Below are positions 9,325 to 10,146 of a stretch of 12,485 nt of DNA, in pieces. How positions within the stretch are numbered: the stretch's first letter is position 1; each line of letters opens with the position of its first letter. A program made the translations under genes and the position numbers. This DNA is from a virus, in the UHGV virus genome UHGV-0140160. One strand, 5' to 3'. A model generated the notes under the pieces. It saw only the letters and a program-made list of their open reading frames with translations. It made no database searches and was not told where the DNA came from.

Positions 9325-10146
9325 TTAATAATGGTTAGCCATCCATTCAGATCTAATTGATGGGATAAACTCTCTATTGAGAAATGGGGCGTACAGCGTG
9401 GTGGTCACGTCTGCACCCTCCTTAGCGTTTTTGCAGCGTTGTGGCGGTAGGATCAGGCGGCTTGTGCCTCGTTCAATAGCCATTTTCAAGCCGTGGCGAA
9501 GGTCTTTCTGCATGAGCTGAATGCGAGCCACCAGAGGCGTAAACTCGGTTTCCAGTGCCATGTTCTCAATGATATCGAATCGTCTGTTTGCAGCTTGTGT
9601 GAAGTCTTCTGGATCGTCGTTCAGAGATGTACACAAGGCCAACTCAGCTATACGGAGACGAGCAACCTCAGCACTGTACTCTGGAGTTTTCATATCAGGC
9701 AAAGTGGCGCGCATACGCTCAAGCAATTCAGCGCCTTTCCCTATTAATGGTTTAAGCGTCCACTCGGTTGGTACTCCGTTTATTGGGACCATAGTTTTAA
9801 TAAACGGCGGGACAGTCAGGATTTCTACCGTTTCGGCAAGGTCTGAAAGGTTAATATCTGCATGATGAACGCTTCCACAGTGACCACACTCATATGAGTA
9901 AGTCATGACGGCATCAGGCCTGGAATTAACAAAGATCCACCAAAGCGCGGTTCTGCGATCCTGAACCGTCCAGTTTGAGCTGTCGTTAATTTCGCCGTCT
10001 TGCATAGCGTTGAGGTATTCTGTTGTGGTTGCCTCGTCTTCTGCCGGATTGATGTCTGAATATTTCAGGGCATCTTTCACAGTAGGTGCATGAAACTGAA
10101 TTTCTATTTCAGGCTGTGAAGGCAATGGGAATTTGGGAATGTTCAA
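9325..10146 (-). CDS. Hypothetical protein, 273 aa; first gene of the tail operon (tail assembly or structural role inferred from position only)
   Basis: TTG start at 10146-10144 preceded by a strong GGAGG 5 nt upstream; 54-nt gap to the giant gene. Single CxxC (YECGHCGS); no family recognised. Confidence 0.6.
   Translation of the reverse strand: MNIPKFPLPSQPEIEIQFHAPTVKDALKYSDINPAEDEATTTEYLNAMQDGEINDSSNWTVQDRRTALWWIFVNSRPDAVMTYSYECGHCGSVHHADINLSDLAETVEILTVPPFIKTMVPINGVPTEWTLKPLIGKGAELLERMRATLPDMKTPEYSAEVARLRIAELALCTSLNDDPEDFTQAANRRFDIIENMALETEFTPLVARIQLMQKDLRHGLKMAIERGTSRLILPPQRCKNAKEGADVTTTLYAPFLNREFIPSIRSEWMANHY

Follow-up and report, generated by a model that had tools for sequence, protein, structure and literature searches.

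What is made from the gene that lies between a replication origin and the tape-measure gene of a P1-related phage-plasmid, and where does its coding region end? The question is raised by a stretch of 12,485 nucleotides (nt) from the virus genome UHGV-0140160 (the window), in which an open reading frame (ORF) of 273 codons starts with TTG beside the origin and stops shortly before the tail gene sit. A preliminary description, made from the sequence alone, recognised no family for this gene, regarded a tail chaperone as plausible from its position and left room for an unrelated accessory protein. The gene is identified here as pmgB of a D6-like (P1-related) phage-plasmid. PmgB is probably a non-structural tail assembly protein of the gp26 family named after phage T4, serving as a tape-measure chaperone and having a second product that arises by a +1 frameshift.

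Identity of the gene

Over its whole length (residues 1-273), the protein of 273 amino acids (aa) matches the PHROGs family phrog_1854, 'PmgB-like', with an E-value of 4.2e-130. In tblastn, it is 90% identical to orf41 of D6 and 41% identical, over 99% of its length, to PmgB of P1; TubC in P7, orf41 in D6 and PHROG 1854 are synonyms of the P1 protein. With this full-length homologue, the statement that no family can be recognised proves wrong. The match is a clear one to a tail assembly protein of a P1-like phage, essential for tails, and the guess of a tail chaperone agrees with a suggestion already published for P1 PmgB (PMC9024508). Homologues are widespread: 78 clusters were found in a protein search at E <= 1e-3, and 165 representatives at 50% identity in a second search.

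The start of the gene had been described correctly as a TTG preceded at good spacing by GGAGG (coding strand: ...TCTGGAGGAATCCTTGAAC...). The 54 aligned PmgB homologues have the N-terminus MNIPxFPLPS (M-x-I-P-x-F-P-L-P-S) in common and begin at the same position. In 88 distinct loci, the start codon is TTG (29), ATG (33) or GTG (26), and the D6-like clade combines TTG with GGAGG. Because homologues share the start position and a Shine-Dalgarno (SD) sequence is present, the ORF is a real gene with a correctly placed start. Besides the N-terminus, a CxxC...H motif, an RHGL motif and a PFRNxxFIP tail are conserved. The conserved residues C87-x-x-C90...H94 and C238 suggest a metal site that may resemble the Cys pairs of gp26.

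The pmgB gene of P1 is essential. A knock-out produces no complete tails, just polytube- or polysheath-like structures; the protein was undetected in the virion proteome, HHpred gave no relative for it, and the proposal that it serves the tape measure as a chaperone came from its position upstream of sit alone (PMC9024508). A CRISPR interference screen also found the gene essential (PMC10695390). PHROG 1854 and RefSeq carry the label 'PmgB-like head morphogenesis', yet the P1 knock-out makes heads that lack tails; the label looks like a misnomer spread by annotation.

Relationship to the gp26 family of phage T4

The Pfam family PF12322 ('T4_baseplate') matches residues 8-104 of the PmgB of the window with E 1e-3 and 19.3 bits, and 22 of 54 members of the PmgB family match it too, all below threshold (best E 2.9e-5). 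A truncated protein that is 88% identical (P0015) carries a precomputed match to PF12322.15, and PHROGs returns a weak match of PmgB to phrog_150, 'baseplate hub'. The two families are bridged by P0239, a distant homologue found in a profile search of 1.8 billion representatives (E 4e-21 against the PmgB profile). It passes the gathering score of PF12322 (32.1 versus 24.5), matches both phrog_1854 (2.9e-26) and phrog_150 (1.6e-8), and finds P1 PmgB directly in tblastn (1e-10). Its locus holds a module of pmgC-like, tub-like and pmgB-like genes and a 755-aa ORF, the latter without a PHROG match.

The AlphaFold2 (AF2) model of PmgB, built on the family alignment, has a predicted local distance difference test (pLDDT) score of 92.9 and a predicted template modelling (pTM) score of 0.89. 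Compared by Foldseek with BFVD, whose entries are predicted structures and not solved ones, it gave 36 matches at E <= 1e-3. The top matches are full-length (E 7e-9 to 1e-4, template modelling score 0.5-0.62), and those with a name are mostly called 'baseplate hub subunit', 'baseplate protein' or 'baseplate hub assembly protein, (bacteriophage) T4-like'. Neither a profile sequence search nor Foldseek found a significant match in the PDB, so that we know of no solved structure with this fold. NCBIfam holds no family for PmgB, P0239 or T4 gp26.

Because weak Pfam matches occur across the family, P0239 forms a bridge and a confident model matches predicted viral structures over its full length, PmgB can be regarded as belonging, remotely and below the Pfam threshold, to the 'baseplate hub assembly' superfamily of T4 gp26. 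By profiles and models, this placement is well supported for the superfamily and moderately so for T4 gp26 itself. In hhalign, the N-terminal domain of PmgB aligns with the N-terminal half of T4 gp26 at 68% and with its C-terminal half at 83% probability; the C-terminal domain of PmgB gave no signal against T4 gp26. Three points tell against the placement: the window protein scores below the PF12322 gathering score (19.3 versus 24.5 bits), full-length PmgB reaches a probability of only 22-53% in hhalign against an alignment of T4-only gp26 sequences, and T4 gp26 has no +1 extension.

The two proteins share N-terminal similarity that includes a Cys motif (C82xC84 in gp26, C87xxC90 in PmgB). Both are required for an early hub or tail step, both are absent from virions where examined, and both are linked to a gp25-like gene, which for PmgB is pmgA. 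Unlike pmgB, T4 gene 26 adjoins genes 25 and 51 and not the tape-measure gene 29. The T4 record lists a second product, 26', over the 3' end of gene 26, which is read as internal initiation.

T4 gp26 (positions 3803-4429 of locus L002) has one Cys pair per half, C82/C84 and C187/C190, and 26' corresponds to the last 95 residues of the C-terminal half. An ancient duplication in gp26 is possible. Internal duplication finds no sequence support, the N- and C-terminal halves of PmgB and of gp26 matching each other in hhalign with less than 1% probability.

The family names raise the possibility that PmgB is a structural subunit of the baseplate hub and not a chaperone, whether or not the +1 extension is made. 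The labels of PF12322 and phrog_150 read 'base plate protein' and 'baseplate hub', and 'baseplate hub subunit' recurs among the Foldseek names. Mass spectrometry easily overlooks hub proteins of low copy number, and the P1 proteome missed PmgA and gp5 too. Even so, we consider a structural role unlikely. As far as we know, the solved T4 baseplate structures do not contain gp26, and the NCBI name of the T4 protein is 'gp26 family baseplate hub assembly chaperone'. No PDB chain matches PmgB by sequence or fold, a position upstream of the tape measure combined with a two-product signature is a trait of chaperones, and P1 virions yielded no PmgB (PMC9024508).

A +1 reading frame across the end of pmgB

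Between pmgB and sit, what looks like a gap codes in the +1 frame. This frame is free of stops from 9404 up to the TGA at 9203-9201, just before the ribosome-binding site of sit, and reads ...PFSIESLSHQLDLNGWLTIINNLTLYGYQPVSDVEQLPQWRALHMEKALEEKYKAHAKKTG. The frame was followed through 96 homologous loci that were fetched, together with the window, D6 and P1; 98 loci were analysable, with 88 distinct nucleotide sequences and protein identities down to 33%. In 98 of 98, the +1 ORF spans the pmgB stop, beginning no later than the TTT codon equivalent to Phe255 and extending 18-53 codons past the zero-frame stop. D6 carries the same ORF, and its differences from the window between the pmgB stop and the sole in-frame ATG are 11 synonymous and 0 non-synonymous (counted by eye). 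The P1 peptide reads LYGGIPIQDAERL... versus LYGYQPVSDVEQL..., and SYQTLVSNLVLYGGIPIQDAER is an example of the P1 extension. Over all loci, the conserved peptide was compiled by eye as F-[GAS]-[IL]-x-x-S-F-Q-x-L-x-L-x-G-W-L-x-x-I-x-N-L-[TA]-L-Y-G-x-Q-P-[VI]-x-D-[VI]-[ED]-x-L-P-x-W-R-A-x-x-M-N-x-x-L-x-E-K-[YFL]-K. The best reading of the pattern is a programmed +1 frameshift, by which the gene would give both PmgB (31 kDa) and a longer PmgB' (35.5 kDa).

Codon comparisons were made over 24 codons, counted from the N of NLxLYG, in 62 distinct segments, 49 of them wholly downstream of the zero-frame stop. Synonymous changes dominate in the +1 frame only, where they make up 40% of the differing codon pairs, against 9% and 3% in the other frames. 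Variation is concentrated at +1 third positions (entropy 1.55 bits, versus 0.65 at second positions), and each of the other two frames is stopped in 53-54 of the 62 segments. At the site, the coding signal passes over into the +1 frame: the highest value upstream is that of frame 0 (0.18 versus 0.07 and 0.085), about nine codons are dual, and then +1 leads.

The place of the frame change is narrowly bounded. In one locus (L013), the +1 frame is stopped one codon ahead of the TTT, and in seven loci zero-frame stops follow nine codons after it, which confines the change to about 10 codons. Within these bounds, TTT_C is the sole invariant slippery element. The codon equivalent to Phe255 is TTT in 88 of 88 distinct sequences, whereas elsewhere in the gene 338 TTT stand against 345 TTC; the base that follows is C, or T in 2. 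From the site onward the alignment is gap-free, and the predicted fusions have a length of 308-323 aa (standard deviation 2.7), compared with 266-297 aa (standard deviation 7.5) for the zero-frame products. Remote homologues keep the arrangement, with CCC_UUU_UCC in the locus of P0239 (L100) and CCG_UUU_CGG in another (L102), each followed by a related +1 peptide. The predicted junction is ...LYAPF-SIESLSHQ... in this phage and LWVPFGLPISFHR in P1, whose site CCC_UUU_CGG would give a product of 316 aa.

UUU_Ynn is a +1-prone site in bacteria, and recorded cases are Yersinia YopN-TyeA and the influenza PA-X cassette UCC_UUU_CGU (PMC5009743); forward frameshifts are annotated in many phage tail chaperone genes, 350 of which form part of the PRFect training set (PMC10274946). 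The slip codon of yopN-tyeA and PA-X is the same as in pmgB: the tRNA-Phe in the P site re-pairs on UUY, often with an Arg codon CGN in the A site. P1 and the other relatives with CGG (33 of 88) carry (C)CN_UUU_CGG, as in such sites, and the window has CUC as its A-site codon; the biological context of the known cases differs, and the pmgB site is a prediction from sequence. The A-site codons of the remaining sequences are CGC (25), CUC (25, the window included), CAC (2), UGC (2) and CAA (1). CGG makes up about 10% of the Arg codons elsewhere in the gene and is read by a scarce tRNA in E. coli. Schwartz and Curran reportedly found in 1997 that UUU_CGG is the most shift-prone of the UUU/C-CGG/U pairs. 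In 42 of the 88, the preceding codon is CCC, on which a slip of tRNA-Pro from CCC to CCU would yield an identical protein.

Other forms of recoding were considered and ruled out. For a -1 or -2 shift or transcriptional slippage, there is no conserved heptamer or long homopolymer. For bypassing from UAU to a downstream UAC, the stretch that would be skipped, LTIINNLTL, differs only synonymously between D6 and the window.

The +1 ORF might instead be a separate small gene, or the product of termination and reinitiation, with PmgB a single protein of 273 aa. Genes in phage operons are often translationally coupled, some homologues have GTG, TTG or ATG codons within the +1 ORF, and the in-frame ATG of the window would give a 17-aa peptide, MEKALEEKYKAHAKKTG. 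This arrangement is nevertheless quite improbable. The +1 peptide, conserved and drifting synonymously, starts some 40 codons upstream of that ATG, before which no SD sequence is found; in 33 of the 88 sequences, including the window, the +1 ORF lacks ATG, GTG and TTG codons ahead of the conserved core, and in the others the positions of such codons are unconserved. Between UUU_C and the conserved core the spacing is constant, with no gaps, whereas the zero-frame stop follows the site by 9 to 38 codons, so a product that stays constant cannot come from reinitiation at the stop. Less credible still is an origin of the +1 ORF as by-product of a non-translational constraint, such as an RNA element or a regulatory region of sit, in an ordinary single-product gene whose role is unknown: the location just upstream of the sit ribosome-binding site and the failure to find a frameshift stimulator would fit it, but the third-position variation, the synonymous changes in the +1 frame only, the stops in the other two frames, the 0 predicted pairs of conserved secondary structure and a +1 ORF that stays uninterrupted in 98 of 98 loci, and in remote homologues as well, all speak against it.

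Several observations weigh against the programmed frameshift. The A-site codon of the window and the D6 clade, CUC, is not notably rare. RNAalifold predicted 0 pairs for 25 diverse sequences and thus no conserved stimulatory RNA structure, and no SD-like stimulator was found upstream of the site. In 13 sequences with long zero-frame tails, the synonymous-site analysis failed to separate the two frames, and in an AF2 model of P0021, which consists of a partial body and the extension, the extension is helical at a pLDDT of 45-66, that is, with low confidence. As neither a conserved RNA structure nor an SD-like stimulator was detected, the efficiency of the shift is expected to be low.

The pmgB-sit gap is unannotated in the P1 and D6 records, and in a plasmid of 97% identity RefSeq, too, has an unannotated gap there, of 147 nt. 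The extension has no Pfam or PHROG family match, and none of 270 family proteins is an in-frame fusion of body and extension. Among 5.8 billion protein clusters, the extension occurs solely in P0271 and P0272; P0021, from the first protein search, carries it as well. P0021 and P0271 (E. coli), found on contigs of identical length (118,714 bp), join the PmgB body to the extension exactly between ...LYVPF and SIESL.... Since P0021 has several other frame breaks, the fusions in P0021, P0271 and P0272 are read as assembly indel errors at homopolymers and not as biology; error-ridden assemblies can mimic or hide recoding. The literature searched holds no link of pmgB to frameshifting. Relative to the published record searched, membership in the gp26 family and the +1 extension are new; the gene itself was already known as PmgB.

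Complementation of P1 deletions by plasmid amounted to 4.7-fold for pmgB versus 460-fold for pmgG (PMC9024508). If PmgB' exists and the cloned fragment ended, as is usual, at the annotated pmgB stop, the clone would be short of the final 23 extension codons, and the poor rescue could be due in part to this loss.

PmgB and PmgB' as a putative chaperone pair

For PmgB as a tape-measure chaperone with two products, the following course can be proposed. Transcription would start from a late-promoter-like motif wedged between pmgB and the DnaA box of the origin. Normal translation would yield PmgB of 273 aa. A minority of ribosomes would slip +1 at CCA_UUU_C (Phe255), with tRNA-Phe re-pairing from UUU to UUC, and would read the conserved extension of 59 codons to just before the sit ribosome-binding site, giving PmgB' of 314 aa. 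PmgB would coat or hold Sit while the hub is assembled and the tail tube initiated, and would then leave the particle. The body common to both products would bind Sit, and the extension would bring in a further component of the tail, for instance the tube protein or a tube initiator, in analogy to gpG/gpGT of phage lambda, tethering its partner as gpGT tethers gpV. The choice of this partner is a guess, a further weakness of the proposal. A low efficiency of the shift would suit a chaperone pair, since the ratio of G to GT in lambda is about 30:1.

Like the genes for lambda gpG/gpGT, P2 gpE/E+E' and HK97 gp10, pmgB stands immediately upstream of the tape-measure gene (extension stop at 9201, sit start at 9174). 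Chaperones of the G/GT type have two products that share their N-terminus through a frameshift near the 3' end, as predicted from sequence for pmgB; they are essential for tails and not found in virions, and the same holds for P1 PmgB. The model of PmgB has a weak fold similarity to HK97 gp10 and YqbN, which is only a hint of a chaperone-like fold. Several differences set PmgB apart. The G/GT type uses a -1 shift at an X_XXY_YYZ heptamer, whereas pmgB would use +1 at UUU_C. PmgB is two to three times larger than these chaperones and has two domains, its extension has 59 aa versus about 140 in lambda T, and no Pfam Phage_TAC family matches it.

A review describes G-T frameshifting as conserved in long-tailed phages 'except T4' (PMC5009743). 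A wider claim, whose chances appear to us evenly balanced, is that all P1-like phages, P1 included, make an unannotated PmgB' by a +1 shift at UUU_C, that PmgB and PmgB' form a tape-measure chaperone pair, and that T4 gp26 is the diverged counterpart of G/GT that T4 is said to lack. P1 is among the phages most used in genetics. Phage-plasmids of the D6/P1-like kind are frequent in E. coli, Salmonella and Shigella, with matches to 115 plasmid records. If the frameshift is real, an essential tail gene encodes a product absent from every annotation examined, and a +1 case at UUU_C, from a myophage, joins the conserved frameshifts of tail chaperones. The gp26 family, for which we know of no settled role in T4 hub assembly, would also acquire a function that can be tested.

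Gene neighbourhood

Across pmgB and the beginning of sit, the window is 81% identical in nucleotide sequence to D6, a relative of P1 that exists as a plasmid prophage. The annotated order in D6, on one strand, is S, R, 16, bplA, pmgA, sit and pmgB, followed by a divergent replication initiator gene. The order R-16-bplA-pmgA-sit-pmgB of the window (Table 1) is the same as in the D6 and P1 annotation, with pmgB directly upstream of sit. In P1, the order is pmgC-tub-pmgB-sit-pmgA-bplA-16 behind the late promoter LPsit. P1 PmgB thus has the same position directly upstream of sit; it also belongs to the same length class and shares the conserved N-terminus and motifs, the UUU_C site and the +1 extension. 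In contrast, pmgB is the third gene of the LPsit operon in P1, whereas in the window and in D6 it comes first behind a promoter-like motif of its own and has, unlike in P1, a Rep3-type replicon inserted upstream. The A-site codon is CGG in P1 and CUC in the window, the zero-frame tail has 32 versus 18 residues, and the proteins are 41% identical.

Table 1. Features of the window around pmgB, the tail operon and the replicon.
Feature	Position	Strand	Remarks
R	2114-2560	-	matches D6 order
Second motif copy	2596-2616	-	upstream of R
16	2673-3515	-	matches D6 order
bplA	3525-4955	-	matches D6 order
pmgA	4952-5326	-	matches D6 order
sit (tape measure / injection transglycosylase)	5332..9174	-	probable start TTG 9174, 1280 aa; phrog_7182, tape-measure phrog_2276
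Putative +1-frame extension	9201..9380	-	59 codons (SIESLSHQLDLNGWLTIINNLTLYGYQPVSDVEQLPQWRALHMEKALEEKYKAHAKKTG) + TGA; with residues 1-255 = predicted PmgB', 314 aa, 35.5 kDa
pmgB zero-frame coding sequence	9325..10146	-	273 aa, 31.0 kDa, TTG start, TAA TAA stop (9327-9322)
Predicted +1 frameshift site UUU_C	9381..9384	-	Phe255 codon + next base; context CCA_UUU_CUC_AAU_AGA
SD sequence GGAGG	10152..10156	-	5-nt spacer AATCC before TTG at 10146; kept in D6-like clade
Late-promoter-like motif AAATCACACACT-CCC-TATCCT	10183..10203	-	3' end 36 nt before pmgB start codon
DnaA box TTATCCACA, perfect	10218-10226		pmgB-proximal origin edge, 71 nt from pmgB start
A+T-rich stretch, five GATC sites	10232-10289		presumed origin-opening/methylation region by analogy with P1 oriR
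Five direct 18-bp iterons ATCAACGCTAGCGGGTAA	10329-10432	+	21-23 bp apart
Replication initiator gene (Rep3_N)	10461-11354	+	true start may be downstream of listed GTG; D6 repA-like gene in equivalent position
Further iterons	11361-11486		both orientations; after rep gene

The start of sit is most likely the TTG given in Table 1 and not the GTG at 9270 (1312 aa) of the mechanical ORF list, since an SD sequence, GTGAGG, lies at 9185-9180 and the homologous TTG is annotated in D6 and agrees with the comparison with P1. The stretch 9201-9270 is part of the pmgB +1 extension and not of sit.

A late-promoter-like motif

The motif upstream of pmgB is one of two occurrences of the 21-nt pattern AAATCACA[AC]ACT-N3-[CT]AT[AC]CT in the window, both on the late-gene strand, where 0.01 would be expected; the pattern was built from these two sites, so they are no independent support for it. 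Other loci do lend it independent support. In D6, the motif precedes R and pmgB and, with 3 mismatches, the capsid gene 23. In 25 fetched loci, all exact occurrences are on the late-gene strand, and in the clade that lacks the replicon insertion the motif lies about 2.2 kb upstream of pmgB. It begins like the -22 box of P1 LPsit (AAATGACTA). In five of the closest plasmids, similarity stops at position 10203 of the window, which is the edge of the motif. From these sequence comparisons, we infer that the motif may be the late promoter of the unit pmgB-sit-pmgA-bplA-16, squeezed against the origin. The P1-type late promoter pattern (AANTNACT-N5-TANAAT) gave chance-level matches only, none of them upstream of pmgB, and a scan of 9200-10600 found no sigma-70 promoter or terminator.

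A GC-rich hairpin (AGCCCCAC...GTGGGGCT) is located at 2642-2665, right after the stop of gene 16 and ahead of the motif copy that precedes R. Its T-run is too short for terminator criteria.

The adjoining replication origin

The preliminary description had placed the gene first in its operon, with an upstream region at the replication origin, and for this element both points hold. The genes upstream are on the other strand, and beyond the promoter-like motif the DnaA box, the iterons and the Rep3_N gene follow. The region is a typical iteron replicon. The origin-opening and methylation role of the A+T-rich stretch is our assumption from its likeness to P1 oriR. The suggestion of an unrelated accessory protein finds no support: the link to the origin is specific to D6-like elements, and the P1 gene lies far from oriR, between tub and sit. 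A replication-related role of PmgB is ruled out by the same limited distribution.

Two iteron copies are found inside the rep coding region, at 10679-10696 and 10943-10960, 264 bp apart and 89% and 94% identical to the reference copy. The iterons within and after rep are possibly copy-number control sites like P1 incA. A small hairpin, GGGCTTCTTAGCCC, lies at 10293-10306 between the GATC cluster and the first iteron.

In plasmids that are 96-97% identical in pmgB, similarity to the window is lost at position 10203 or 10249, and the replicon module (10203-12485) appears to be exchangeable. Beyond rep, D6 and plasmid NZ_CP085065 carry tub; in the window, a gene with an ORF6N domain begins on the plus strand at 12068 and runs off the end.

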